IMG/VR virus record: IMGVR_UViG_3300011116_000815
Span: 1 to 54,417 of that record
Source of the DNA: a virus
Taxonomy: Duplodnaviria; Caudoviricetes
DNA length: 54,417 nucleotides
Direction: 5' to 3' (one strand)
Shown: piece by piece, positions 358 through 54,417 of the stretch
How positions within the stretch are numbered: position 1 is the first letter of the stretch
Layout of the letters: every line of letters begins with the position of its first letter
Notes under the pieces: model-generated
What the model saw: the letters and a program-made list of their open reading frames with translations, nothing else
What the model was told of the DNA's origin: nothing
The model's database searches: none
Position numbers and translations under genes: made by a program

Positions 358-864
358 ATGGCCAAGAAGTTCAACTTCCGCAACGGTTATCGCGCCGTTG
401 TGGATGCCCAGACCGCTGGGCAGGAGCTGGAGCGCATCCGCTCTGATCACGGGGAGCTGACCGCAGCCCTTGTCGTTGATGAATCGCGGCCCGAGTCCGC
501 ACCGCTGCATCCCGCCTTCGAGTGGGATGACGCCGTGGCAGCGGAGAAGCACCGCGAGCATCAGGCCAGGACCATGATCCGGGCCGTCCAGGTCGTCGGC
601 AGCGATGGCCCGGCCGAACCGATCTACGTTCACATCAACTCGGCCGGGTCCTACGTGCCGACTGATGAGGTCGTGCAACGGCTGGACCTGTACGACGAGG
701 CCTACCGCGATGCTCAGTCCCGGCTGGCAGCAGCGGCCCACGCCGTGCGGATCCTGGCCAAGGCCGCCGAACGGTTGCGGCCGAAGTCCTTGTCTCGGAT
801 CGAGTCCGCTGCGGCAAGCCTGCAGAGGGCTCAGGACCGGCTGGCATCGGCGCCACCGCGCTGA
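358..864 (+). CDS. Conserved phage protein downstream of the array (LHPAFEWDDAVAAEKHREHQAR motif); candidate accessory protein of the RAMP/array locus
   Basis: ATG at 358 preceded by GAGGA; the track's extension to 97 is translated repeat; C-terminus is helical or coiled-coil-like. Confidence 0.75.
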   Translation: MAKKFNFRNGYRAVVDAQTAGQELERIRSDHGELTAALVVDESRPESAPLHPAFEWDDAVAAEKHREHQARTMIRAVQVVGSDGPAEPIYVHINSAGSYVPTDEVVQRLDLYDEAYRDAQSRLAAAAHAVRILAKAAERLRPKSLSRIESAAASLQRAQDRLASAPPR

Positions 865-2417: not shown

Positions 2418-5400
2418 GTGACGATCGTCAAGAAGTCGGGGGATTCCGGCAGCTGGCCCCTCGCATCAGATCAGGCGACCGTCAAGCAACAGCTGACCGC
2501 AATGCTCGACGGGCTCCGGCAGCTGATCGGCAGCGCCAACATCGCCGGCGGATCGGTCGAGCTCAACGACCCGCTCAACGCACCATTCCAGCTCTACGTC
2601 AACCCCTACATCGGATCTGATGCCTTCGCCGCTGGATCGTTCGCCAGCTACGACCCAGATCCTGCGGGCAGCAATCCGACCGCTGCGAACATCGACGCGA
2701 AGATCCGGCGGATTGACAATCAACGCCTAACGTGCGGATACAGCGAGGCGAGGCCATTCAAGACGATCAATCGCGCGATCATCGAAGCGGCGCTGATCAC
2801 CAGCAAGAGCTGGTTCACCTATGGCGGTGAAACGGCTCATCTGGATTGTGTCAGCATCCGACTGAGCGCCGGGGTTCACACCCTCTACAACGACCCCGGC
2901 AACACTGGCACCACCCCTGCGGTTTGGGCTGATGGCAAGGTTCCAACGGTCGCGGAACTGATCGGATTCAATCCGAATGAAGGCGGTGTAATCCTGCCTC
3001 GTGGGTGCACGATGTGGGCCCCGGATTATCGCAAGTGCAGCATCCGCCCGAACTATGTCCCGGCTGATGCCGATGAGGCCTATAGCGAATCTGGCGGGGT
3101 TGCAACGATCACCGGCCGATCGTGTTTCTTCCGCACTACTGGAACCGGATACACGTTCGGTTACACGATGATGGACAAGCTGGGCAGCACTCAGAGCCAT
3201 CACCTGCTCAGCGGCTACGAGTTCGCATCACAATCGCAGCTAACGACGTTCTACGGCAAGGTCAACACCGCCCTGGCCCCGAACGGCAACGGATCGGCCA
3301 CCCTGCTGGTGGCTCGCACATCGGAGCATCAGATCGTCGGCCCAATCAGTGGCAGCCCATCAGAGGCATGGGACACGACCGGATCGGCGTCGTTCTACAT
3401 CCTCAACGTCGGCATCCGATCAGAGCGGGGATTGTGCGGCGCCCTGATGGATGGCAGCAAGGTCACCGGCCTGCGGTCGATGGTAACTGCTCAGTTCACC
3501 AACACCAGCAACCAGCGCACCCTGAGCTGCTGGCAGATCTACTCCGGCGGCAGCTGGGTCACCCCTGCGAACTACCAGGCGATGATCGACGCATCGCCGG
3601 ACTCGCGGCGAATGAAGCCCGGTCGGCGATCATTCCACATCCGGCCCATCAACGGCGCCTTCGTGCAGACCGTTTCGGTGTTCAGCATCGGCGTCGGGAT
3701 CCACAACTGGACCCAGACCGGCGGCGAGCTGGATGCGACGAACGGCAACACCAGCTTCGGCGGCGTGGCAGCCCTGGCCGAGGGATACCGGTCGGCGGCG
3801 TTCACGATCGACAAGAGCTGGACCATCTCCGCCTTCCGGGTGCCTCTGCGCCCTGATGCCAAGGCTCCAGCCATCCGGCGGATCTTCCTCGGGACGGTCA
3901 GCAGTGCCAGCTCGGGGGCGATCACGATGGCCGCTGCCCTGGACCCCGCCGTGCTGGAGTCCTACACCCTGCGGGCTGGCTCCTACGTCTGGGTCGAGAA
4001 CCCCCAGGGACCTGACTGGAGGGCACAGCTGGCGAACCCTGCCTGGAGCAGCGGCGCGCCGACGATCATCAACATCACCGCCGCGCTGGCCGATGAAAAC
4101 GCCGCGGCGGCCGGCAGCAGCGCCAACGGCCGCCGGGTCTACATCCGCCGGCTGGCCGATAACCGCAACCGCGATGAGCGCCGGCTGGTGCTCAAGCTGT
4201 CGAACACCACCAACGCCAGGACGCCACAGCGCCATCAGGTCCTGCAGCTCGACCCGACCCGGGCGGGCGTGAACGGCGTCCTGCCTGCCGCCAGCACCTT
4301 CGCCATCACATCGACCACGGCCACCACTCCGGTCGGTGCTGGGGTGCTGCGGGCGGCGCTGGTGTCGCTGCGGCGGTCGAACCCGGATCAGAACTACGCC
4401 AACGGGACCTACTACCGCAAGGGCACGGTGGTCAAGAGCGGGAACAAGCACTGGGCAGCGATCAACGACCTGGCCGCTGCCACGGCGACGCCAGACCCGG
4501 CGCTGTGGTCGGAGTGCTACGTGGCGATGCCTGAGGCCTACAACGCCGAGGACCCTTTCGCCAATGAGGCCCCCAGCCTGGTTCTGGACGACGACGCCAG
4601 CGGCACTGAAGCATCGACGACGCTGGGCTGGGACTGGACCACGGCATTCACCAGCGGCAGCAGCACGGCGGCGGCATGGCTGCGGACCCAGTACCGCAGC
4701 GGTGTCGACTACCTGGCGGCTCATGCCCTGCTGGTGGCCCTCGGGCTCAGCTCGAGCGATGCCCACACCGCCCTGGCCCCACAGCTGGAGGCCAGCCGAT
4801 TGCGAGATCCGGCATCGTCCAGCGACTTCCCGGTGGCGCCCGCCGGGGGGCTGGCGAACGGCAGGGCGAACTACCCCGTTGAGTTCCGCCGCCCCTCGAC
4901 CCTGGCCATGGCCCCGCATCGGACGGCATGGTGCGGATGGGGGAACTACTCCACCGCGCTGCCTCAGGTCCAGCAGGACATGGCTGCCCGCAACCGGTTC
5001 AGCTATCTGTTCACCAATGCCGGCGGTGGTTTCGTCGCCTGCGACGGGACGCAGGAGGACATGCTGCGATTCACCCCCGCTGGGCTCGAAGATCTGACCA
5101 CCGGCGAGGTCGCCCAGGTCGGGGACATCGGCGCCCCTGACGTGTCGGTGGGATCCTCAACGACGTTCACCGGGACGATTATCGACAGCATCTTCCAGGG
5201 TGTGATGGACTTCACGGGGGCGACCCTGCAGGGGTTCCCGCTGGCCAACAGCTCAACTCCCGGGCTGATCGAAACCGCCACGATTGCGGAGGTGCTGACG
5301 GCGATGACCACCGTTGGCACCGGCGGGCTGGCCCTGACGACCGATTCAATGCCGGCGCCGATGAGATCAAATGCCGTGGACATGGGCAGCGGCACCGCCC

Positions 5401-5660
5401 TGGACCTGAGCCTAGGAGCGTTCTTCTACCGAACCGTCAACGGCAATGTGACATTCACATTCACCAATGTGCCGGCCAATGGGGTGACGCTATTCCTGTT
5501 TGAGTTCACCTACACCAGTGGCACGATCACATGGCCAGCGATCCTATGGGCTGACGGAACGGCGCCGACGCTTGTGGCCGGATACACCTACACGATCGCC
5601 TTCTACACCCGCAACGGTGGCAGCACCTGGCGCGGCAGTCGCCCCACAATCTGGACCTGA
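2418..5660 (+). CDS. Large tail fibre/tail spike-like protein (1080 aa)
   Basis: LYVNPYIGSD...RPFKTINRA motif seen in cyanophage fibres; Gly/Ser/Thr/Ala-rich; C-terminal TVNGNVTFTFTN beta domain. Confidence 0.65.
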   Translation: MTIVKKSGDSGSWPLASDQATVKQQLTAMLDGLRQLIGSANIAGGSVELNDPLNAPFQLYVNPYIGSDAFAAGSFASYDPDPAGSNPTAANIDAKIRRIDNQRLTCGYSEARPFKTINRAIIEAALITSKSWFTYGGETAHLDCVSIRLSAGVHTLYNDPGNTGTTPAVWADGKVPTVAELIGFNPNEGGVILPRGCTMWAPDYRKCSIRPNYVPADADEAYSESGGVATITGRSCFFRTTGTGYTFGYTMMDKLGSTQSHHLLSGYEFASQSQLTTFYGKVNTALAPNGNGSATLLVARTSEHQIVGPISGSPSEAWDTTGSASFYILNVGIRSERGLCGALMDGSKVTGLRSMVTAQFTNTSNQRTLSCWQIYSGGSWVTPANYQAMIDASPDSRRMKPGRRSFHIRPINGAFVQTVSVFSIGVGIHNWTQTGGELDATNGNTSFGGVAALAEGYRSAAFTIDKSWTISAFRVPLRPDAKAPAIRRIFLGTVSSASSGAITMAAALDPAVLESYTLRAGSYVWVENPQGPDWRAQLANPAWSSGAPTIINITAALADENAAAAGSSANGRRVYIRRLADNRNRDERRLVLKLSNTTNARTPQRHQVLQLDPTRAGVNGVLPAASTFAITSTTATTPVGAGVLRAALVSLRRSNPDQNYANGTYYRKGTVVKSGNKHWAAINDLAAATATPDPALWSECYVAMPEAYNAEDPFANEAPSLVLDDDASGTEASTTLGWDWTTAFTSGSSTAAAWLRTQYRSGVDYLAAHALLVALGLSSSDAHTALAPQLEASRLRDPASSSDFPVAPAGGLANGRANYPVEFRRPSTLAMAPHRTAWCGWGNYSTALPQVQQDMAARNRFSYLFTNAGGGFVACDGTQEDMLRFTPAGLEDLTTGEVAQVGDIGAPDVSVGSSTTFTGTIIDSIFQGVMDFTGATLQGFPLANSSTPGLIETATIAEVLTAMTTVGTGGLALTTDSMPAPMRSNAVDMGSGTALDLSLGAFFYRTVNGNVTFTFTNVPANGVTLFLFEFTYTSGTITWPAILWADGTAPTLVAGYTYTIAFYTRNGGSTWRGSRPTIWT

Positions 5661-27420: not shown

Positions 27421-30017
27421 CCTGCTCACCGAACTCGCCCGCCTGCCGGCCCACTGGCACTTCGTCGCGGTCGACGGGGAGAAGCGCCCCTATCAGCGCC
27501 AATGGGAGCGCCGACCGCTGGATCAGGCCGGGATGGCTCGCCAGATCGCCAGCGGCAAGGCCCGTGGCATCGGCGTGCAGCTCGGCCCGGCATCGGGCCT
27601 CATGGCCGTCGACCTGGACGGCCGCAGCGCCGCCGATGAACTCACCCGCCTCGGGGTGCCACTGCTCGGGCTGCCGATGACCTGGGCGGTCACATCCGGC
27701 CGGCCCGGGCGTCAGCAGCTGTTGTTCACGGTCGCGCCCGATCGCCAGGACGGACTCCGCCCCACGAAGCGTTTTCCCCTCGACTCCGATGGTCAGCGGG
27801 TCATCGGCGACGACGGCAAGGCCGAGAACCTTGACCTGCGATGGCAGGGCCAGCAGTCGATCGTCGCCGGGGCCCACCCGCTCACCGGCGCCTACCGCTG
27901 GGTCAGCGGCTGCAGCCCCGCCGACCTGCCGCTGGCCGAGGCCCCGGATGAGCTGCTGGAGCTGATGCGGCGCCCGGCCGACCCAGAGCCGCAGCCCGAT
28001 CTGCCACCGCCGCCAACCTCCGGCACCGTCCCGCTGATCGACTTCGTCACACGCGACTCTCGCGCTCTCATCGAGACCGGCGGCACTCCCGGCGCCTGGA
28101 ACGATGACCACCTTCGCCTCGCGCTGGACCTGCAGGGCACCGAGGCATGGCTGCTGGCCCAGGGCGTGCGGCCCGACGTCACGGCTGAAGATCTGTTCCG
28201 TGATCACTGCAGCGCCGCATCCCGCCTGTCGCCCGACTTCGACCGGCGCAAGGCCATGCGCCGATTCACCGGCGCAGCGAAGCGCAGCCCTCGCCCCGGG
28301 ACGCCCGAGGCCAAGCTGCTGGACCGGCTGCGGTATCACACCCGCAGCAGCGAGCCGGCGCCGTCATCCCCGCCGGACCCGCCAGACCCGCCAGAGCCAC
28401 CGGAGGAGCCTGAGCACCGCGAGCCGTTCGTCCTGTTGGGCTTCGACGGTGACGCCTATTACTACCAGCCTCACAGCACCGGGCAGGTCATGCGGCTGGC
28501 TCGATCGGCGCACACCAGCACCAACCTTGTCGCCCTGGCGCCGCTGGCCTACTGGGAGGCGATCGCCCCCGGCAAGAGCGGCCCGAACTGGACCGCTGTC
28601 GCGGCTCGGCTGTTCCACCTGCAGGCCGCCGTCGGGGTCTACCAGCCCGCCAGGATCCGCGGCCGTGGCGCATGGTGGGACCAGGGCCAGCCGGTGCTGC
28701 ACCTAGGGGATCGCCTGATCGTCGCCGGCGAGACCCTTCCGGTCAGCCATCAGCAGCCCGGCAGCCGCGCCCTCTACCAGCGCCTCGGCGCCCTCTCCGG
28801 CCCGGGCGATGCCGTGCCCCTTGATGACCAGGGATGCCAGATGCTCGCCGCCTTCGCCGAGCGGTTCCGATGGGAGGTCCCAGCATCGGGGACCCTGCTG
28901 GCCGGCTGGGTCGCCCTGGCCCCGATCTGCGGGGCGCTGCCCTGGCGCCCCCACTGCTGGCTCACTGGTGCCGCGGGATCCGGCAAGTCTGCCATCCTCG
29001 ACCGCTACGTCATCCCCCTGCTGGGGGATATGGGCCTGGTCGTGCTGGGCAACACCACCGAGCCGGGCATCCGCCAGGCATTGCGCGCCGACGCCCTGCC
29101 TGTCGTCTTCGATGAGGCTGAGGGCAACGAGCGGCAGGACCAGCAGCGGATCCAGTCGATCCTCGGCCTGGCTCGAGTCGCATCATCAGAGTCAGCCGCC
29201 CAGACCCTCAAGGGCACGCCCGAGGGCGATGCTCAGCGGTTCGTCATCCGGTCGATGTTCCTGTTCAGCTCGATCGCTCACGGGCTGAAGCAGGGCGCCG
29301 ACCTCAGCCGATTCGCCCAGCTCACCCTCCGCAGCCCGGGCGATGCTCCGGCTAATCAGCTGAAAACGCACTGGGATCAGCTCAGCGCCGACTTGGACCT
29401 GGTGACGCCCGCCGTCGGCCGGGCCCTGCAGGCGCGCACCCTTCGGCTGATCCCGGCGATTCGGGAATCCATCGGCGTGCTGACTCGGCAGGCAGCGCTG
29501 GCGTTTAACTCGCAGCGCCTCGGGGATCAGTACGGCACCCTGCTGGCCGGCGCATGGTCGCTTCAGTCACACCAGCCGATCACTCCGCAGCAGGCTCAGC
29601 AGTTCATCGATCAGAACGACTGGGAGCCCTACAGCCAGGCCACCGAGGCCCCTGACGAGCATCGCTGCCTCCAGCGGATCCTGCAGCACCAACTCAGGGT
29701 TGAGGGGCAGCGGACGGTCACGCGAACCGTGGGGGAGCTGGTGCTGATCGCCGCTCACCGTCAGCCGGACATCGACGTGGGCCCCGATCTCGCCAGCGCC
29801 ACGATCGAACGTCACGGGCTGCGCCTGGATGGCGCCGCCCTGGTGATCAGCAACACCGCCCGCGAGGTTGCGGCGATCCTGGCAGACACAGCCTGGGCGA
29901 ACTGCTGGGCGACGGTCCTGGCCAGACTGCAGGGGGCTGAACGCACTGGCCCGACTAGGTTTCGCGGCCTTGGCTCGGTCTCGCGCGGCACTCGACTGAG
30001 CCTGGACACCCTCAACC

Positions 30018-30022
<5 letters not shown>
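27407..30022 (+). CDS. Primase-polymerase (Prim-Pol) fused to a P-loop helicase/ATPase
   Basis: KRPY...GIGVQLG...AVDLDG...GAHPLTGAYRW; GAAGSGKS; VVFDEAE. Confidence 0.85.
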
Positions 30023-30340
<318 letters not shown>

Positions 30341-45140: not shown

Positions 45141-45469
45141 CCGAGGTCGCCCGTTACTGGGCGGCCGGCAGTAGCACGAGGGACTACAGCGAGGCGGACC
45201 GCGACGCGGCGGCCCTGGGCGTGATCTGGGTCCGGGAGGAGGAGCAGCCGGACTGCTGCGAGGTGTGGGAGGAGAACTGGGAGACGGTCGTGATGTTCAT
45301 GCGACTGCAGACGCAGTGGCGGACCACGATGGCCGGCTACCAGGGGCTCGATTATGGGGCCGCTCAGTGGCTGATGGGTCTTTACCATGTGGAAGACCCA
45401 GTCACGATGCTTGAGGGCCTGCAGGTGATGGAGTCGGCGGCACTGCAGGAGCTGAACCGCGATGGCTGA
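45131..45469 (+). CDS. Tail assembly chaperone -1 frameshift extension (gpGT/DUF1799-like)
   Basis: VWEENW...TQWR...GLDY...LQVMESAAL in the -1 frame. Confidence 0.75.
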   Translation, partial: GKLAEVARYWAAGSSTRDYSEADRDAAALGVIWVREEEQPDCCEVWEENWETVVMFMRLQTQWRTTMAGYQGLDYGAAQWLMGLYHVEDPVTMLEGLQVMESAALQELNRDG

Positions 45470-48400
45470 CAACACGACCCGGCTGAAGATCCTGGCCCAG
45501 GTCGAGGGGGTGCAGGGGTTCGATTCGCTGAAGCGAAGCCTGCAGGGGCTGGCGCAGCAGGGGCAGCAATCGGGCCGATCGCTGGATCGGCTCTACACCA
45601 GCTATCAGCAGCTGTCCGGGGCTGGGAAGAACAGCATCAGCAGCCTGAGGCTCCAGGCAACAGCCCTGGCCCAGCTGCGAGATCAGGCTGAGCTTGGCAG
45701 CCGGAAGTTTCGGATCCTGACCCAGGACCTCGAGCGGGTTGAGAAGCAGCTGCAGCAGACCACCCGCGCGACCCGCGGCGCAGCGCCAGCCATGGGCGGC
45801 GGCATGGGCCTGGCGGGCCTGGCGGGCCAGTTCGCCCCGCAGCTGGCCGTGGGCGCCGCTGTGGCCGGGATCGCCACAGCAGGGGTAAGCGCTGAGTCGG
45901 CGCAGGTGCGGCTCAAGGCGCTGACGGATCAGTTCGGTGAGTACAACGAGGCGCAGGCAGCAGCGGCGCGGATCGCCGGCACGCTGCGGCTGAGCACGGC
46001 CGAGTCGCAGCAGTCGTTCGCTGATCTCTATGCGAGCCTGAGGCCGACCGGCATCACGATCAAGGAGCTGGAAGACACTCTGATCGGGTTCTCTGCGGCG
46101 GCTCGCAACAGTGGCGCAACGGCGCAGGAGACCAGCAACGCGTTGATCCAGCTGAAGCAGGGCCTGGCCAGCGGAACGCTGCAGGGTGAGGAGCTGCGGT
46201 CAATTCGTGAGCAAGCGCCACTGGCGGCGCAGGCGATTGCGAAGGAAATGGGTACGACGATCGGCAACCTGAAGAACCTTGCGGCCGAAGGGAAGGTCAC
46301 GACCGATGTGGTAATCCGCGCGATGGGGCGGCTGAAGGAAGAGCAGCTCGGGAAGTTGAATGCGCAATTCAACACGGCAGAGCAGGCGATGATTGACATG
46401 AAGAATGCGGCGTTAGATGCTGGGTCGGAGATCTCTAAGCTGTTTGGTCCGACTATGGTGGCCGGGTTGAGGCTATTGACTGGCGCATTGAAGGGAGTCA
46501 ACGATCAGCTTAAGTTTTACTCCGACACTCAAGCCGCCCTGAAAAACTACAATATTACCCCAGAGCAAGAGCTAAAGATTCGGCAGAAGGCCGACAAAGA
46601 AGCAGAAGATATTGTCAATAGGCGTCGTATTGCCAATCCATTCCAGAGAAACGAGGAGTATCAAAGAGTCAGGCAAGAGCAATACAAAAACATGATTGAG
46701 CGATTTAGGTATGGTAGCGCTGGTCTTCAATCTAAAGATTTCGCGCTGACTCCTGAGCAGCTTGCCGATCAAGCGGCAGCACGTCAGGAACGATTGCAGG
46801 CCGAATTAGACGCAAAGAACGGCAAGAAAAAGGAGTTTAAGCCAAGTAGCCGTGCGCAAGCGTTGGTCAATGCCGCTAAGAAGCTTGGGGTTTCACCACT
46901 TGACCTGGCGACAATCATAAGCTTTGAGACTTCAGGGACATTCAGCCCGTCAATCGTTGGTGGAGAAGCTAACAAGTATCAAGGCCTAATCCAATTCGGC
47001 CCTCCAGAGCGTGCGCAATACGGAATGAATAGGCAGCAGACATTTGAGGAACAGGTACAGGGTCCAGTGGTTCGATATTTCCAAGATCGTTTTGCTAGGG
47101 CTGGAAAGAGCACTCAAGGCGCAGATCTGCTCAAGCTCTATACAACAGTCTTAACCGGAAGCCCAAGCGGTAGCCCTAACGCAAAAGACGTATTTGAGAC
47201 AAGTCCAAGATCTGGCGTAGCCGCAATGGGACCACACAGGCAGCGTGCGCTGCAAGTGTTCTTTGGCGGCAAGCTCGAAAACGTCGGCTATTCAATGGCT
47301 CAGGCTGGTGAAGACATTTCGCAAGGGTTTGAGCAGACTCAAAAACTCGCCGAACAACGTGCCAAAGAGCAGAAAGACACAATCGAGCGCAATCAGAAAC
47401 TGGCCGAACAAGCACAGCAACAGGAGGACTCCTATTTCGCAAGCCTGCAGACAACTAAAGATCAGGCAAGATTGCTCGGGACTATGACGGAGGGCCAACG
47501 ACTACTGGAGGAGTTCGCCAATAACATTCTCGACATCGAGCGAGACACGGCGAAAGTGAAAGCCGAGGCCCTGACCGAGGATGCTGCAGCGCTTGCGGTT
47601 GCGGATGGTGAGCTGAAGAAGCAGAACGCGCTGAACAAGCTGTATCAGGATCAGGCGGCGCTGAAGTCGGCGGCGATGTCCGAATCCTGGGCCCAACAGC
47701 AGGAAACCCTCCAGAGCACGCTGACCAGCTACTACCAGCAGCAAGCCGATCTGCTGGGCGAGCAGAATCAGTTGGCCGTCAGCCTGTCGCAGTCAATCGG
47801 ACAGGGACTGCAACAGGCGTTCAGCCTGGCGATTCAGGGCACCGAGGACTGGGGCGCCAGCCTGAAGAACCTCGCCAGCGGCGTGCTGCAAGACATCGCT
47901 CAGCAACTGCTGCAGATCGCGGTCATCACCCCGATCGTCAACAGCATCGCCGGGATCGGCGCGCGCGGCATCACGCCAATCGCCCCCGGAATCTCGGCGC
48001 TACCCGGCGGCGACTTCGCCGGGGCATTCACCGGTGGCGGCGGCATGTCGTTCACCGGCGGGCTGCCCGCGGCAGCGATGACTCCAGGCGCGTTCCAGTT
48101 CGCCACCGGCGGCATCATGACCCCTCAGGGTGCGGTGCCGCTGCGGCGTTACGCACGAGGCGGGATCGCCACGGCCCCACAGGCGGCGATCTACGGGGAG
48201 GGATCCACCCCTGAGGCGTTCGTCCCGCTGCCCGATGGCCGGCGGATCCCGGTGGCCCTGCGGCAGTATCCGGGCATCCCTGGCGCCCCCGGCACCGGCG
48301 GATCGTTTGAGCAGACCGACGCGGTGGTGCAGCGGCTGGTCGAGACGGCCCGGCAGGAGTCTGCGGTCCGCGCCGCCACGGGCTCTGCCGCTGCACCTGG

Positions 48401-48566
48401 CGGCACCATGCGCATCCAGATCGAAACCACCCGGATCAACTCGGTGGACTACGTCACTGCAGAGCAGGCGCAGGCGCTGGCGCAGGCGGCGGCGACCCGC
48501 AGCACAGCCCGGCAACAGCGGGCCCTCCAGGGCAGCCCGGCGGCCCGGCGATCGGTGGGGATCTGA
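45462..48566 (+). CDS. Tape measure protein with internal lysozyme/transglycosylase-like domain
   Basis: QLKQGLASGTLQGEELRSIREQAP; ISFETSGTF...YQGLIQFG; FATGG...GEGSTPEAFVPL. Confidence 0.9.
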   Translation: MADNTTRLKILAQVEGVQGFDSLKRSLQGLAQQGQQSGRSLDRLYTSYQQLSGAGKNSISSLRLQATALAQLRDQAELGSRKFRILTQDLERVEKQLQQTTRATRGAAPAMGGGMGLAGLAGQFAPQLAVGAAVAGIATAGVSAESAQVRLKALTDQFGEYNEAQAAAARIAGTLRLSTAESQQSFADLYASLRPTGITIKELEDTLIGFSAAARNSGATAQETSNALIQLKQGLASGTLQGEELRSIREQAPLAAQAIAKEMGTTIGNLKNLAAEGKVTTDVVIRAMGRLKEEQLGKLNAQFNTAEQAMIDMKNAALDAGSEISKLFGPTMVAGLRLLTGALKGVNDQLKFYSDTQAALKNYNITPEQELKIRQKADKEAEDIVNRRRIANPFQRNEEYQRVRQEQYKNMIERFRYGSAGLQSKDFALTPEQLADQAAARQERLQAELDAKNGKKKEFKPSSRAQALVNAAKKLGVSPLDLATIISFETSGTFSPSIVGGEANKYQGLIQFGPPERAQYGMNRQQTFEEQVQGPVVRYFQDRFARAGKSTQGADLLKLYTTVLTGSPSGSPNAKDVFETSPRSGVAAMGPHRQRALQVFFGGKLENVGYSMAQAGEDISQGFEQTQKLAEQRAKEQKDTIERNQKLAEQAQQQEDSYFASLQTTKDQARLLGTMTEGQRLLEEFANNILDIERDTAKVKAEALTEDAAALAVADGELKKQNALNKLYQDQAALKSAAMSESWAQQQETLQSTLTSYYQQQADLLGEQNQLAVSLSQSIGQGLQQAFSLAIQGTEDWGASLKNLASGVLQDIAQQLLQIAVITPIVNSIAGIGARGITPIAPGISALPGGDFAGAFTGGGGMSFTGGLPAAAMTPGAFQFATGGIMTPQGAVPLRRYARGGIATAPQAAIYGEGSTPEAFVPLPDGRRIPVALRQYPGIPGAPGTGGSFEQTDAVVQRLVETARQESAVRAATGSAAAPGGTMRIQIETTRINSVDYVTAEQAQALAQAAATRSTARQQRALQGSPAARRSVGI

Positions 48567-49039
48567 TGGACCACGACATTGCCGAGGGCGTCTACCTGCA
48601 GTTCCTGACCCGAGACGGGGCACCCACCGGCTATGCGTTTCAGCAGTTCCACGTCGGCGAGACGCGGACTTACGAGGGGGTGGACTATCTGTTCGCGGGG
48701 TTCCAATACTCCGGCGCGACAGTCGACCTGGGATTCCCGAATGCTGAGGCGGTGCTGGCGTTTCACGCGAACACGCTGGGCCTGAACATCTGGAAGCAAT
48801 CGGCCGATGATCTGTGGATTGCCAGGGTGCGCACGGTCTGGATCGACCCCGAGACGCTGGACGAAACCGGAGTGCAGATGATCGACACCTACGCCGTGAC
48901 CGGCTACACCCATGACCTGCAACAGGTGAGCCTGACCCTGGGCAGCCCGCTGGATGCAATCGGCGGCGACTGGCCACGGCGGGTGCTGACACAGGCGATG
49001 GTCGGCGCTCTGCCACCCACGGGAGACACGAGGTTCTGA
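48566..49039 (+). CDS. Minor tail protein
   Basis: After the tape measure gene; LGSPLDAIG..WPRRVLT. Confidence 0.6.
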   Translation: MDHDIAEGVYLQFLTRDGAPTGYAFQQFHVGETRTYEGVDYLFAGFQYSGATVDLGFPNAEAVLAFHANTLGLNIWKQSADDLWIARVRTVWIDPETLDETGVQMIDTYAVTGYTHDLQQVSLTLGSPLDAIGGDWPRRVLTQAMVGALPPTGDTRF

Positions 49040-52000
49040 TGCTCGGGAAGCGACGCCTGCGCCTGCTGCTGCCGATCGACCGGCAGATCATGGCCGCCCT
49101 GGGCCTGACGGAGGCGCAGTATCGGCGATTCCAGCTTGAGGCCGAGCGCATGACCCGGCAGCGGCCGGCGCAAGGGCCTCAGGCGCTGGACCCGTTCCTG
49201 ACGTCGCTGCTGATCAGCCTGGCGATCAGCGCTGCGACTACGGCTGCGTCCTACCTGCTGACCCCACGCCCGCGGCTGAAGCAGCCCAGCAGGGCCAGGC
49301 CGGGCGAGCTGCGGCAGGAGCAGCAGCAGGGCCAGCAGCTGGTCAGCCGCACCGAGTTTGCGCCGAAAGCCGGCATCAGCAGCAGCCAGGACACGGTCGA
49401 GCTGGGCGCCACGGTGCCGGTGATCTGGGCCCACCGCGAGACGATCGACGGCGTGACCTATGGCGGCGTGCGGGTGAATTGCCCCCTGCTGTGGTCCCAG
49501 ATGGTGAGCCTGGGCGGCAGCCAGATGTTGAGGGCCGTCTACCTGGTCGGCGAGGCCTCGGTGACGGGCATCGACCCGCAGCAGTTCGCATTTGGGGAGA
49601 ACCTCCTGTCCGCCTACGACCTGGGCGCGGCCGGTGAGCAGTCGGCCCGCGTGACCCTCTACCACCGGACTGGTGGGGGGCGGATCCGCGCGAGCGACCG
49701 CATCGCCGGGCGGCTGGCGGCGAACGACCCAGGGAATGCCGAGGCGGCAGGGGCGGGCGATGTGTTTCAGGTGCGGGGACTGAACAATGAGTGGGTCCCG
49801 GCGACGTGCTACAGCTACACCCCCTCAACCCAGACGACGTTCGGGGTCTACTCGCCCATCGGCAACGGGCTGGCCTACCGGGTGAACCCGAGCATCAGGC
49901 CGATCACTCAGGCGAATGTCCAGACGCCACGGGACAAGGCGCTGACGGAGCAGGGGTATGGGCTGATCGTCTGCAGCCGCGATAATGCCGCGACGGCGCA
50001 GCGGGCGAAGTCAGATGCGATCAGCGCGAGCCGCTGCGGCCTAACTGCCCATCGCCGCGGCGGCAGCCCGGTGGTCGACAACACCCTGCTGGTCGACGAC
50101 GAGCTGGACCTGCTGCTGGACGCCAGCACCGAGGCGGCGCTGACGTTCGGGTCTGGGGACTACAGCGAATCGCGCGGGGACATCGGCTCAGCGGTGTCCG
50201 GCCGGCAGCGTGGCTGGGATGATGCGCTGATCGTCGGCGAGCTGTACCGGATCGGGTCGGCGGTCTGCGTCTGCAGCGCCAGGAGCCCATCGGACGACGT
50301 GTTCCGGTCGGACGTGGATCAGCAGCCGATCGGCGGCGGTGTGAGCGTGACGGCGACCTTCCGCGTGGTGGAGGCGGGTGCGGCCGATTTCCCCGGCCCC
50401 GGTGGCACCAGATCAGGAACCGCTGCGCCGCATGTGCTGCGGATGGCCCGGGCCACGGTGGCGGTGCCGCAGCCAGCGCAGGTGATCGAGATCGGGATCC
50501 GCTCAACGGTTGGGATCAGAGTCGGCGGGTTGATGAACTTCCGCGATGCCCTGCCCTACGCCGAGGTCGACGGGCGGGCGTGCGACTACATGAACCTGAG
50601 CTACCTGCCGCCGAATCAGATCCTGCGGGTGACGATCTACCAGTCGAGCACGATCACGCAGACCGAAACCCGCTATTCGTTCTGGCGAGTGCGCTACCGG
50701 ATCGCCGGCAGCAGCAGCAGCTGGTCAACCCTGCCGCAGCTGTTCGGGGCGGCTGGCAGCACCCAACAGGCTCAGTTTGGGTTCCTGCGGATGGAGTTCC
50801 CAACGCGGCAGCGATGGGAGGTGCGGATGGATCCGGTGAGCGGATGGGAGGTGCGCAGCGGCACGGCCACCGGTGACCTGGTGGTGATCGACGCCAGGCT
50901 GTCGACCCTGCTGACCGTGGGCGACGGATCGGTGGTGGTGCGAGTGCCCGGCGACATCGTGCCGCGCCAGTCGTCGACGTTCCAGATGCCATGCACGATC
51001 AACACCCGCGGCGGCATCGGGATGCCGAATGTCGACGGCGGCAACTACGTCGATGAGTGGGCCCGGCTGGCTGAGCAGTTCGTCTACGACGAGATCACCG
51101 CCAGCACGGGCGCGCCTGAGCACGAGGTGACCTACGTCAACGTGATCGACACGGCGCCGACGACACCGAGCTACGACAATCTGACGCTGGTCGGCGTCAA
51201 CATCCGCAGCGGCAGCGAGGCTACCCAGCTGGGCCAGCTGAGCGTCTACGCCAATGACGGGATCGACGGATCGCACTCGTTCCCTGATCTGCTGGCAGCA
51301 GGACTGCAGAACGAGCGCTATGGGGTCGGGTCGATCCTGAGCCCGCTGCAGGTTGATGTGGCGTCGTTCGCCTATGCGACCGAGTGGACCCGCGCGCGTC
51401 GATACTTCTACGACGGGGCGCTGCAGCAGCCGGTCAACATCCGCAGCTGGGGCAACGACACCGCGGCGCTGTTCCTGCTGGATCTGGTGACCCGCAACGG
51501 AGTGAGCTACCTGCAGCCAGCGGTGCTGTTCGACCAGTCGGAGGAGATCACGGGCCTGTTCAATGCCGGCAACATCGTTGAGGGCAGCTTCAAGCTGAGC
51601 TATGTGGACCAGGCCGAGCGCCAGCCGTGCCGAGTGTCGGTGAAGTGGCGGGAGGAGCGCCGCGCCGAGGGTGACGGCAGCAATCGCGGCCTGTTCCCGG
51701 TCATGCGAGAGGTGACGGTCAGGGAGGCCGGCACCAGCGAGACCGCGCCGCTCGAAACCCTGGACCTGTCGGACTGGTGCACGAGCGAGCGCCACGCGAT
51801 CGACGTAGGGAAGCTCAAGGCGCGGCTGAAGCGGCTGATCACGCACCAGGTCACATTCGAGACCGTGCCCCAGCAGGCGACGCTCAGGCCCGGGCGGTGC
51901 TTCCGGCTGGCGATGGAGACGGTGGCCTACTCGAATCCGCGCAATGGGGCGATCCTGGCGGATGGCACGATCACCGCGAGCGAGCCCCTAGCCGACGGCA

Positions 52001-53106
52001 CCTACGACGTGCTGCTGTGGGACGGCGTGGGGCAGATCCAGGAGGTGCAGCTGCAGGTCCTGGGCGGCAAGGCGGTGGGCCAGTCGTCGGCGGTGTTCAC
52101 CCTGGCGGACGTGTTCGGGACTGAGACGACCTACAAGGTCCAGTCGATGGCGTTCAACGAGGCGGGCAACATTGAGGTCACGGCGCTGCACTGGCCGACG
52201 GATCAGCAGGGCATGAGCGACGTGTCGGCGGGCTGGGAGGTAGCAGGCAACTGGGCCATTGAGGGGGCCATCGGCAGCACCGACGCGCCGGGGACGATCA
52301 CCAGCAGTTTCACCGGCGTGACGATCACAGGGCCCGGGACCCTGACCGTCGGGGTGGCTGGCAGCTATGCGGCGGTGATCAGCGGGACCGGGACCGGGTT
52401 CACCTACAGCTGGACCGGGGCGGGCCTGACGTTCGGCAGCCCCTCGGCGGCGACCACGACGATCACGGCCAGCAGCGCCGGCAGCAAGACCGCCAGCTGT
52501 GCGGTGACGCGCGGGGGCACGACGATCACCGACACGCACCCGATCCTGGCGGTTGCGGCCGATGCGACCACGACGATCGGCACCGTGACCATCAGCGGCG
52601 CAACGACCGGGACCAGCCCGGCGACGGCGAGCTACTCGGCAGCGGTGTCCGGGACCGCAACGGACCTGAGCTACAGCTGGACGGCGCCTGTGGTGCCGGC
52701 GGGCGGGGTGGTGACCTGGGACGCCACGAACCTGGCGACGGTCTCGGCGACGTTCACTGGCGTCGGTACCTATCAGCTGGCGTGCCGGGTCACCAGCTAC
52801 GCGGCGACGGACCGGATCATCGACAAGGCGGTGACGTTCAACCTGTCGACGGACACGGCGACGGCAACGGCGCACGGGCTCGCCGCGGGCGATCCGGTAA
52901 CATTCACCGCGACCACCGGCACCCTGCCAACGGGGCTGCAGGAGCAGACCACCTACTGGGTCCGATCGGGCGGGCTGACGGCCGATGCGTTCACGGTCGC
53001 CACGGCCCCGGGCGGCACCCTGCTGGACCTGTCCGGCGCCGCTGGCGGCACGTACCGGGTGACCAGACTGGGGCGGTCCGACCTGCATCAGGTGGTGATC
53101 TCGTGA
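49039..53106 (+). CDS. Tail tip/host-specificity protein (gpJ-like) with C-terminal Ig/PKD-like repeats
   Basis: ELGATVPVIW, NERYGVG, FYDG, LFNAGNI; Thr/Gly-rich C-terminal domains. Confidence 0.75.
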   Translation: MLGKRRLRLLLPIDRQIMAALGLTEAQYRRFQLEAERMTRQRPAQGPQALDPFLTSLLISLAISAATTAASYLLTPRPRLKQPSRARPGELRQEQQQGQQLVSRTEFAPKAGISSSQDTVELGATVPVIWAHRETIDGVTYGGVRVNCPLLWSQMVSLGGSQMLRAVYLVGEASVTGIDPQQFAFGENLLSAYDLGAAGEQSARVTLYHRTGGGRIRASDRIAGRLAANDPGNAEAAGAGDVFQVRGLNNEWVPATCYSYTPSTQTTFGVYSPIGNGLAYRVNPSIRPITQANVQTPRDKALTEQGYGLIVCSRDNAATAQRAKSDAISASRCGLTAHRRGGSPVVDNTLLVDDELDLLLDASTEAALTFGSGDYSESRGDIGSAVSGRQRGWDDALIVGELYRIGSAVCVCSARSPSDDVFRSDVDQQPIGGGVSVTATFRVVEAGAADFPGPGGTRSGTAAPHVLRMARATVAVPQPAQVIEIGIRSTVGIRVGGLMNFRDALPYAEVDGRACDYMNLSYLPPNQILRVTIYQSSTITQTETRYSFWRVRYRIAGSSSSWSTLPQLFGAAGSTQQAQFGFLRMEFPTRQRWEVRMDPVSGWEVRSGTATGDLVVIDARLSTLLTVGDGSVVVRVPGDIVPRQSSTFQMPCTINTRGGIGMPNVDGGNYVDEWARLAEQFVYDEITASTGAPEHEVTYVNVIDTAPTTPSYDNLTLVGVNIRSGSEATQLGQLSVYANDGIDGSHSFPDLLAAGLQNERYGVGSILSPLQVDVASFAYATEWTRARRYFYDGALQQPVNIRSWGNDTAALFLLDLVTRNGVSYLQPAVLFDQSEEITGLFNAGNIVEGSFKLSYVDQAERQPCRVSVKWREERRAEGDGSNRGLFPVMREVTVREAGTSETAPLETLDLSDWCTSERHAIDVGKLKARLKRLITHQVTFETVPQQATLRPGRCFRLAMETVAYSNPRNGAILADGTITASEPLADGTYDVLLWDGVGQIQEVQLQVLGGKAVGQSSAVFTLADVFGTETTYKVQSMAFNEAGNIEVTALHWPTDQQGMSDVSAGWEVAGNWAIEGAIGSTDAPGTITSSFTGVTITGPGTLTVGVAGSYAAVISGTGTGFTYSWTGAGLTFGSPSAATTTITASSAGSKTASCAVTRGGTTITDTHPILAVAADATTTIGTVTISGATTGTSPATASYSAAVSGTATDLSYSWTAPVVPAGGVVTWDATNLATVSATFTGVGTYQLACRVTSYAATDRIIDKAVTFNLSTDTATATAHGLAAGDPVTFTATTGTLPTGLQEQTTYWVRSGGLTADAFTVATAPGGTLLDLSGAAGGTYRVTRLGRSDLHQVVIS

Positions 53107-53483
53107 GCGTGCCATTCCCTGCGATCCGCCCGGCCAGTCGGCAGTACCAGCCGCCGGCGGTGCCGATCAGCGAGACCAGATCCGAGGCCGGCCTGACGTT
53201 CCGGCGACGGCGGGGGAGCCTGGCGGTTGATGCCTCGCTGGCCCTGCGGTTCGATGCGCGGCCTGTGAGCGACTGGGACGCGATCGAGGCGGCATGGCTG
53301 GCCAGCGACTGTGGGATGCAGGAGCTGGCCCTGCCGGCCGAGGTGTGGGCACCTGGGGCGGCGCCAGACCTGCCGGGGCTGCAATGGCGGTTCGTGCCGG
53401 ACCGGCCGCCGCAGAAGGGCCAGGAGCGGGACCTGCGCGGGCGGGTGGGCATCACGGTGGAGCTGCGGGCTGTGGCGGTCTGA
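53103..53483 (+). CDS. Minor tail (distal tail-like) protein
   Basis: GTG 53103 overlap; FPAIRPASRQY...WRF...P...VEL. Confidence 0.6.
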   Translation: MSVPFPAIRPASRQYQPPAVPISETRSEAGLTFRRRRGSLAVDASLALRFDARPVSDWDAIEAAWLASDCGMQELALPAEVWAPGAAPDLPGLQWRFVPDRPPQKGQERDLRGRVGITVELRAVAV

Positions 53484-53531
53484 GAACTGGCACAAGGGCA
53501 GCGGTCAGAGCCGGGCACTCGGGGGGATGAT
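53471..53531 (+). promoter_or_regulatory. Early-type promoter upstream of the RAMP-like gene
   Basis: TGTGGCG-N10-TGGCACA with a G run and GATGAT at the same spacing as the -10 in copies 3 and 4. Confidence 0.55.
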
Positions 53532-53579
53532 TCGGGGCATGGGCCGGAAGGCTCATTCATTCACACTCACCCAAGGAAC

Positions 53580-54197
53580 ATGGCCACCGCAATCGCGGCG
53601 ATCACGCCGCCGGATTTTCGGCATCTGAGCATCAACATCAAGGGCACCGCGCCGCTGGTGATCAATCGCTTCAGCGCCAAGGCAATGGAGAAGATCCGCG
53701 AGACCCAGGAGGCCGGAGGTGCCGCGAGGTCTCGCAAGACGAAGGATCCCAAGGACTTCCAAGAGCTCTTCGAGGGCGCGAAGCACGTGTCCGACGAGGG
53801 GTGGGAGGGGATTCACGCCGCCGCGTTCCGCAGCGCTGCAATCAGCGCTTGCCGGGCCTGTGGGTTCAAGATGACCCACGCCAAGCTGGCCTTCATGGTC
53901 ATGCAGGACGGGTTCGACCGAGTGGATGGGGCGCCGTTGGTGCGACTGACGAGCGGCACTGCTGAGCAGTGGGTGACGCCGACCCGGAACCAGACCGGGG
54001 TTGTTGATCTGCGATCCAGGCCGATGTATCGGGAGTGGAGTGCGACGCTGCGGATCCGGTACGACGCCGGGATGCTGCAGCAGAACGACGTGGTGAACCT
54101 GATCGCCAGAGTCGGCTACCAGGTCGGCATCGGCGAGGGACGGCCTGACTCGACGAAGTCCGCGGGCCTTGGCTTCGGCCTGTTCGAGATCGTGTGA
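53580..54197 (+). CDS. Stand-alone Cas7/RAMP-like RNA-binding protein (Vipr-like)
   Basis: N-terminal strand LSINIKGTAPLVIN, GIHAAAFRSAAISA (cf. RAMP IPGSSLKGALR), C-terminal Gly-rich loop VGIGEGRP...GLGFGLFEIV; AAGGA RBS; directly followed by the GGC-NN array. Confidence 0.75.
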   Translation: MATAIAAITPPDFRHLSINIKGTAPLVINRFSAKAMEKIRETQEAGGAARSRKTKDPKDFQELFEGAKHVSDEGWEGIHAAAFRSAAISACRACGFKMTHAKLAFMVMQDGFDRVDGAPLVRLTSGTAEQWVTPTRNQTGVVDLRSRPMYREWSATLRIRYDAGMLQQNDVVNLIARVGYQVGIGEGRPDSTKSAGLGFGLFEIV

Positions 54198-54209
54198 TGC
54201 AGATAATCA

Positions 54210-54417
54210 GGCACGGCAGGCACGGCTCGGCACGGCGAGGCTTGGCCTGGCGCGGCGGGGCAGGGCCTGGCCAGGCACCGCAGGCAAGGCGAGGCCAGGC
54301 CGGGCCAGGCTGGGCGGGGCACCGCAGGCACGGCGCGGCGAGGCGTGGCGGGGTCAGGCCTGGCCTGGCACCGCCGGCGCGGCGAGGCTAGGCGCGGCGG
54401 GGCCAGGCCGGGCGGGG
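54210..54417 (+). repeat. GGC-NN pentamer array (5' part, continues across the junction to 333)
   Basis: Begins 12 nt after the stop codon with GGCAC GGCA, then strict pentamers. Confidence 0.9.

Follow-up and report, generated by a model that had tools for sequence, protein, structure and literature searches.

The DNA analysed here (the window) is the whole of IMG/VR record IMGVR_UViG_3300011116_000815, 54,417 nt in length, with a CheckV completeness estimate of 100%. The final 169 bases (54249-54417) resemble the opening 1-169 at 165 of 169 positions, with 4 mismatches, and both ends of the record fall within an array of GGC/NN pentamers (the vrRNA array). The end repeat thus shows that the record breaks inside a repeat array, and the phage genome is probably circular or circularly permuted, the assembly having broken in the array; in IMG/VR it is listed as linear. 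Read across the break on the + strand, the cassette has the order 53580-54197 (205 aa), GGCNN array, 358-864 (168 aa), and it is surrounded by the genes of a siphovirus-type tail module. The features are as follows.

45462-48566, tape measure protein, flank of the cassette
49039-53106, tail protein, flank of the cassette
53103-53483, minor tail protein, flank of the cassette
53484-53579, + strand, vipr leader, a G-rich stretch with degenerate pentamers and then ACACTCAC at 53563-53570 (read directly)
53580-54197, + strand, vipr, coding for a 205-aa RAMP (Cas7/Csm3-like) protein, a predicted guide-RNA-binding filament subunit (PHROG, hhalign, model)
54209-54417, + strand, vrRNA array, first part, GGC/NN pentamers
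1-333, + strand, vrRNA array, second part, units 44, 49 or 54 nt long and delimited by (G/C)GCA|GGC junctions, as in a staggered array
334-357, + strand, accessory gene leader, G-poor, with ACACTCAC at 334-341 and a ribosome-binding-like (Shine-Dalgarno-like) run AAGAGGA at 348-354
358-864, + strand, accessory (Vap-class) gene of the phrog_15946 family, ATG start, 168 aa (family, synteny, model)
469-585, + strand, conserved core of the accessory protein, residues 38-76, an acidic loop VVDESRPESAPLHPAFEWDD and then a basic helix AVAAEKHREHQARTMIRAV
682-849, + strand, C-terminal helical hairpin of the accessory model, residues 109-164; shorter relatives have one helix only
901-1284, tube-like protein, flank of the cassette
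2418-5660, tail fibre, flank of the cassette

The carrier is best explained as a complete 54-kb siphovirus-like phage from fresh water. Sequencing runs that hold part of the window are mostly labelled freshwater or river, and river, lake, soil and sediment DNA metagenomes carry parts of it at small shares. Among genome contigs the nearest homologue of the 358-864 protein (57% identity) lies in a Synechococcaceae assembly, and three of the 19 genome-contig homologues (L163, L167 and L169) are from Synechococcaceae or Synechococcus metagenome-assembled genomes; this suggests a freshwater picocyanobacterium as host of the window phage. Rfam and tRNA scans of the window gave no matches. Two other repeats lie away from the cassette. 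At 12453-12589 there are nine tandem 15-nt units (consensus GCCCCGCTCAGGTCG, 80% matches) within overlapping long open reading frames, possibly encoding a pentapeptide repeat in a protein, and at 30040-30185 an 11-nt repeat CTGTAACGCCC (2.7 copies) accompanies a perfect (TC)23 run. The latter repeats sit between an open reading frame ending at 30022 and one starting at 30085, and could be a regulatory or origin region.

The cassette is a VIPR system, with Vipr, a GGC/NN array and a gene in the vap position. Both VIPR and the concept of vap genes are already in print, in 2026 preprints from one group. In the available parts of one of these (10.64898/2026.04.26.720920), a VIPR system consists of a ~20-kDa RAMP homologue (Vipr), vrRNAs and usually one vap gene. 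The vrRNAs are described as having 9-16 YNNGG repeats in which GGY is conserved and NN is hypervariable; each repeat skips one base as its NN pair reads double-stranded DNA, and the complex silences genes of rival phages and satellites. The same parts of the preprint give seven VIPR types and vap1-6 genes, with predicted DNA-binding Vaps in types II, VI and VII and WH-like or HTH-like domains predicted for the Vaps of several types, and report that Vipr and vrRNA alone bind DNA and repress a reporter, while co-expressed Vap1 enhances defence; a figure legend there describes 'staggered arrays', in which adjacent vrRNAs overlap by one nucleotide. Vipr filaments on vrRNA and an R-loop triplex on target DNA are reported in the accessible sections of a companion preprint (10.64898/2026.04.26.720927), and those of another (10.64898/2026.10.15.759431) report that protection against a satellite in natural infection is lost on deletion of vap1, just as on deletion of vipr. 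Targeting of other VIPR loci, by VIPR systems and by solo vrRNAs, also appears in the available text of two of these sources (10.64898/2026.04.26.720920; 10.64898/2026.10.15.759431). A language-model survey recovers VIPR arrays.

The 53580-54197 protein belongs to phrog_4652 (E 6.3e-17), the PHROG that also holds the Vipr of phage SUSP1 (E 1.4e-96), and hhalign places the two together with a probability of 96.7 (E 4e-10, 60 columns). Its structural model (pLDDT 84.3) matches Csm3/Cas7 chains in a Foldseek search of the PDB, the best of them at E 3.8e-5 with probability 1.00 and 38 matches at E <= 0.001, and a conserved glycine-rich element, GIGEGRP...G.G, lies towards its C-terminus. Pfam, NCBIfam and PADLOC scans assigned this protein to no family.

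The array units of the window are 44, 49, 54 or 64 nt long (5n-1), with 9-13 repeats each, and the pentamers have G at a frequency of 0.97, G at 0.93 and C at 0.89, followed by two near-uniform positions (NN). These positions are hypervariable: six phages with proteins 96-98% identical carry 33 distinct units, just one of which is common to the window and other records. A degenerate unit at 177-220 (NN series TG GT TG AT AA TG CG) recurs throughout this set of six, in the window and loci L005, L006 and L007 and in variant form in L008 and L009, although almost every other unit differs; it may have a conserved target or another role, and the one-base-skip search described below gave no local match for it. 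Within the window, GGY/NN arrays occur beside the cassette only and on the + strand only.

Guide targets were sought under the one-base-skip rule at an NN match of at least 85%, and in the 1.38 Mb of local sequence covered, made up of the window and 181 loci, none was obtained beyond what shuffled guides gave; the same search found no self-targets in the window. When skip rules of 0 to 3 were applied in a local target search, only the arrays themselves matched, at skip 3. Several ideas about the array that preceded the literature were dropped, namely partition-site or iteron arrays, a pac site with a small terminase, G-quadruplex or R-loop elements, and translated pentapeptide repeats. GGCNN repeats can give rise to no stop codon but TAG, which explains the open frame spanning the array and continuing into the gene. 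Annotated phage genomes hold related calls: UmaThurman CDS 'gene 40' (3677-4000 of locus L002) lies wholly within a GGC-pentamer array, and the annotated start of Saal gene 51 is ~147 nt upstream of the homology-supported start, at the array 3' edge (L003 3255-3401). Both look like calls enabled by an array and flank that are almost stop-free. Many metagenomic homologues of the accessory protein have similar N-terminal extensions, with lengths of 199-299.

Gene 358-864 begins 24 nt past the last pentamer and on the same strand, as had been read from the sequence alone, the GGCAA pentamer ending at 333. That reading had also pointed to an element shared by the leaders of the two cassette genes, and this holds: the + strand of the 54,417-nt window has exactly two copies of ACACTCAC and the other strand none, one copy (334-341) lying 16 nt before the ATG of 358-864 and the other (53563-53570) 9 nt before the ATG of 53580-54197. 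The count does not exceed chance (1.48 copies expected; two or more in 46 of 100 shuffles), and what stands out about the element is its placement in the two leaders, not its number. The exact 8-mer occurs in 5 of 67 distinct leaders, those of the closest relatives only. Distant loci have different G-poor, C/A/T-rich leaders, with a mean G fraction of 0.12 vs 0.44 in the array spacer. Both cassette genes of the window have G-poor, CA-rich leaders immediately 3' of G-rich sequence, and in many relatives a GC hairpin and then a G-free leader lie upstream of the accessory gene, an arrangement that could be a processing or translation signal.

In 31 of the 67 distinct leaders the last GCAGGC is found 17-69 nt (median 31) ahead of the accessory start codon, and in the window the distance from the last array junction to the start codon is 31 nt. 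Promoter and terminator scans around the cassette gave nothing convincing. Contigs from two metatranscriptome runs of one study, from a relative ~95% identical, cover the array's 3' part and all of the accessory gene, and one of 1072 nt extends back to the end of vipr. Downstream tail genes are covered as well, and DNA carry-over is possible, so that these RNA-library contigs give a weak hint of co-transcription of the cassette.

The 358-864 protein belongs to a large family, with 8183 cluster representatives (50% identity) at E <= 0.001 and 1934 at E <= 1e-10, nearly all of them 150-190 aa long. Its sole label is phrog_15946, function unassigned in PHROG, which also holds Saal gp52, UmaThurman gp41, Ecliptus gp20 and Cy-LDV1 g33. 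No family was assigned by Pfam, NCBIfam or PADLOC scans of the protein, and a Pfam scan of 50 family members at E <= 1 gave scattered chance matches, none in more than four members. The gene had been described as unlike the tail genes on either side of it, and it is: the flanks are tail genes and the protein matches none of them.

The motif singled out from the sequence, LHPAFEWDDAVAAEKHREHQARTMIR, occupies residues 50-75 and proves to be the most conserved part of the family. Across 50 sequences L50, H51, F54, E55, W56, A61, R66, Q69 and A70 do not vary; of these, W56, A61 and R66 are also invariant in a wider set of 39 diverse members, where G32, L50, H51, F54, A62 and A70 are nearly so. Charge is likewise conserved in this region. 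The loop VVDESRPESAPLHPAFEWDD has a mean net charge of -4.1 and is negative in 38 of the 39 members, the helix AVAAEKHREHQARTMIRAV is positive in 37 of them, and the N-domain as a whole is net acidic in 24.

An AlphaFold2 model of the accessory protein (pLDDT 88.3, pTM 0.74) predicts an N-terminal part composed of a short strand, helices at residues 17-31 and 36-43, a 14-residue loop with RPESAPLHPAFEWDD, a helix at 58-76 and three strands. Confidence in the model is lowest in the conserved loop (pLDDT 61-72). A helical C-terminus had been expected, and the model places helices at 109-140 and 142-164. Among solved structures, alignment over most of the model was obtained only with winged-helix regulators of the MarR type, both weak matches: 1ku9 (Z 7.1, rmsd 8.3 over 125 residues) and 4nb5 (Z 6.9, rmsd 5.6 over 123 residues). 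Foldseek against the PDB gave no match at E <= 0.001 (best E 0.5), VIA-align against 48,161 chains gave generic helical hairpins only (residues 108-168, Z 8-9), and sequence-profile searches of solved structures gave nothing below E 0.1. Matches in BFVD were uncharacterised family members only, those in the ESM Atlas unnamed viral clusters only, and in none of the structure searches was an RNase-like or RNA-binding fold recognised.

Judged as a winged helix, the N-domain has a fitting order of secondary structure and weak matches (Foldseek E 0.5; Z ~7; rmsd 5.6-8.3). It is possibly winged-helix-like, built around the LHPxFEWDD...AA...R motif, a lead that comes from the model and agrees with the predicted DNA-binding Vaps described in the available parts of the preprint (10.64898/2026.04.26.720920). 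The acidic loop and acidic N-domain fit a protein-binding surface better than a plain DNA binder. A predicted complex of Vipr and the accessory protein scored 0.00 against a mark of 0.32, which gives no verdict and says nothing either way.

The sequence-only reading had taken the gene to be a partner of the RAMP gene and array, and the neighbourhoods of its homologues bear this out: wherever a locus extends far enough, vipr is present on the strand of the accessory gene. Searches of 50,697 phage records by tblastn with either the accessory or the Vipr protein recovered the same 33 records, and the two genes are adjacent in all 33. They comprise one cyanophage record, five Gordonia records and 27 Mycobacterium records, RefSeq/GenBank duplicates among them, and include Cyanophage Cy-LDV1, Gordonia phages UmaThurman, Pipp, Ecliptus and ODay, and Mycobacterium phage Saal. 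Among viral contigs with an accessory homologue, vipr lies upstream on the same strand in 76 of 80, the other four having at most 916 nt upstream; conversely, among newly fetched loci anchored on vipr, the accessory gene is downstream in 72 of 77 and the remaining five have at most 647 nt downstream, although these two viral sets share many contigs and are not independent. Both genes are present in 17 of the 19 genome contigs, and the other two are truncated.

Arrays are similarly associated with the gene pair. A strict detector (at least 8 of 10 in-phase GGY) finds cassette-strand arrays in 49/80, 46/77, 17/19 and 4/4 loci, and an opposite-strand array in 1/180; the loci that fail it have G-rich degenerate spacers with the same junction motif. 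The array lies between the two genes in Cy-LDV1, Ecliptus and UmaThurman and upstream of vipr in Saal, and in some loci it is upstream of vipr or downstream of the accessory gene. The genomic setting also differs, the cassette being in the tail module in the window and in Ecliptus, and, in Cy-LDV1, UmaThurman and Saal, in the early region, with repressor or excisionase genes nearby. Since the two genes adjoin one another in such varied contexts, the cassette moves as a unit. The linked Vipr clade spans phages of Cyanobacteria, Actinobacteria, Firmicutes, Bacteroidota and Proteobacteria. In the broad sense of the term, which asks for synteny with vipr within a VIPR clade, 358-864 is a Vap, every exception being a truncated contig, and we consider it very probable that the gene is the dedicated VIPR accessory of its clade.

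It is conceivable that the gene is instead an unrelated passenger, a tail-module or early-region gene that happens to sit beside the cassette. In the window it does lie within the tail module, and tail genes follow it with no recognisable terminator. However, among the loci compared its place beside vipr is kept in unrelated genome contexts, from Cyanobacteria to Actinobacteria, Firmicutes and Proteobacteria, and it has no similarity to structural families; we regard a passenger as very improbable indeed.

As to its role, we favour, with a probability of about one half, the reading that the accessory protein supports Vipr filaments at their target DNA, at or after engagement. This timing is favoured because of the analogy with Vap1 and the possibly DNA-binding-like architecture of the model. 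In VIPR systems, according to the literature, Vipr polymerises on guide RNAs processed from the GGC/NN pentamers, each 9-13-repeat unit defines a DNA target through its variable NN pairs, one base being skipped per repeat, and the filament silences genes of competing phages or satellites; the parts present in the window match this. The accessory protein, made from the same strand as vipr, would likely self-associate through its C-terminal helical hairpin and act at or after target engagement. By way of its possibly winged-helix-like N-domain and the invariant LHPxFEWDD/AAxxxRxxQA element it would bind either the Vipr filament once this is on its target or the DNA distorted around the filament. 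Silencing would thereby reach a strength that counts during infection, an effect reported for the unrelated SUSP1 Vap1. Its family has no detectable relation to Vap1, so the transfer of the Vap1 role is by analogy only. A bolder version, which we think unlikely, is that phrog_15946 is a distinct and possibly the most widespread accessory, whose invariant acidic LHPxFEWDD loop docks on the filament end or the R-loop triplex, and which either caps tail-less staggered guides and so sets their length or senses target binding and converts it into durable silencing. If true, it would be an independently arisen functional counterpart of the CRISPR small subunit.

Two other readings keep the protein within the VIPR system and give it a different task. 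It could be a guide-maturation or filament-capping factor that recognises the constant GGCAC-(G/C)GCAG unit junction, sets filament length, and helps to release unit-length vrRNAs together with its own short-leadered mRNA. We take this as a serious rival, albeit a somewhat unlikely one, because the units lack both tails and ribozymes, the junction is constant, and it lies near the start of the gene. Specifically, the array units of the window have no structured tail, unlike SUSP1 vrRNAs with their terminal hairpin or pseudoknot, neither a hammerhead nor any other Rfam family is found in the window, the junction motif recurs across distant loci with the last junction a median of 31 nt before the accessory start in 31 of 67 distinct leaders, and the accessory family is tied to this Vipr clade. 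Yet the structure searches recognised no RNase-like or RNA-binding fold, and in some loci the array is upstream of vipr or downstream of the accessory gene instead of ahead of it. Moreover, the accessible preprint text has the Vipr and vrRNA of SUSP1 and P. fulva forming RNPs, with SUSP1 Vap1 absent from the purified construct, although that is a different VIPR type.

Alternatively the protein could be a regulator or safeguard that represses its own expression, keeps Vipr off the phage's own genome, or counters a rival VIPR, a reading that we hold to be quite improbable. An acidic loop followed by a basic helix could bind Vipr or mimic nucleic acid, the window has no self-target at an NN match of at least 85%, and a protective partner would be useful given that, in the available parts of the preprints, VIPR loci are targeted by other VIPR systems and solo vrRNAs. 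On the other hand, strict two-way pairing with vipr is more what one would expect of a working partner than of an optional safeguard, the leaders showed no noticeable operator-like repeats, and the sole Vap tested in the accessible preprint text enhances the system and does not restrain it. Support of the filament at its target stays our preferred reading of a gene whose cassette and partnership were recognised first from sequence alone, and for which the follow-up has mostly confirmed what was then proposed.

VIPR is a newly described form of RNA-guided DNA recognition, proposed to predate CRISPR. Published work characterises the Vipr-vrRNA filament and, in the parts available, leaves the action of the accessory proteins open (10.64898/2026.04.26.720927); Vap1 is nevertheless reported, again in a partly available source, to be required in natural infection (10.64898/2026.10.15.759431). 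The accessory family described here is very abundant, strictly linked to a widely spread Vipr clade, and without a sequence relation to Vap1 that could be detected. It is carried by cultivable mycobacteriophages and Gordonia phages, which offer a practical entry to VIPR accessory function.

Among known proteins, the MarR regulators (1ku9, 4nb5) share with the accessory model a helix-turn-helix-like core, a beta wing and long helices able to dimerise, as predicted. They lack sequence similarity to the window protein, with Foldseek E of 0.5-1.9, and the latter differs in having a conserved acidic 14-residue loop between helices 2 and 3 and a net-acidic domain. The Cas11/Csm2/Cmr5 small subunit of CRISPR systems is likewise small and largely helical, rides on the RAMP (Cas7) filament and stabilises target binding. 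The likeness is a functional analogy only, with no match in fold or sequence to the window protein; Cas11 is all-helical, whereas the accessory model has a beta sheet.

The nearest comparison at the level of the cassette is phage SUSP1 (KT454805), in which the two genes are as follows.

28474-29061, - strand, vipr
28031-28471, - strand, vap1

The window Vipr aligns with that of SUSP1 just over the C-terminal 60 columns, at 25% identity. SUSP1 Vap1 (type II, ALH47068.1) has 146 aa against the 168 aa of the window protein, and both are small proteins encoded beside vipr, on its strand, within the cassette. Vap1 belongs to phrog_5926 and the window protein to phrog_15946, with no cross-match at E <= 1, and Vap1 has neither the LHPxFEWDD motif nor any tryptophan (its translation read by eye), both of which the window protein has. 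By hhalign the accessory family and SUSP1 Vap1 have a probability of 0.4 (A1) or 0.1 (A3), with no detectable sequence relation, the comparison being with a single Vap1 sequence, since a search for Vap1 relatives found three proteins, and a very remote relation being possible. The arrays differ as well, GGT-rich vrRNAs with structured tails lying on both sides of vipr/vap1 in SUSP1 and a staggered GGC array in the window. The accessory family falls outside the Vap1 family by these comparisons, and may be among the vap2-6 of the preprint.

Compared with VIPR in general, the window has all three components in the usual layout, encoded by a phage, with 9-13 repeats and hypervariable NN. The single-RRM RAMP with G-loop and thumb that VIPR requires is matched by the window Vipr on PHROG, hhalign and fold, and the tandem GGY/NN pentamers, 9-16 per guide and flanking vipr on its strand, are likewise present. 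The 5n-1 units of the window, with their (G/C)GCA|GGC joints, fit the staggered arrays of the preprint.
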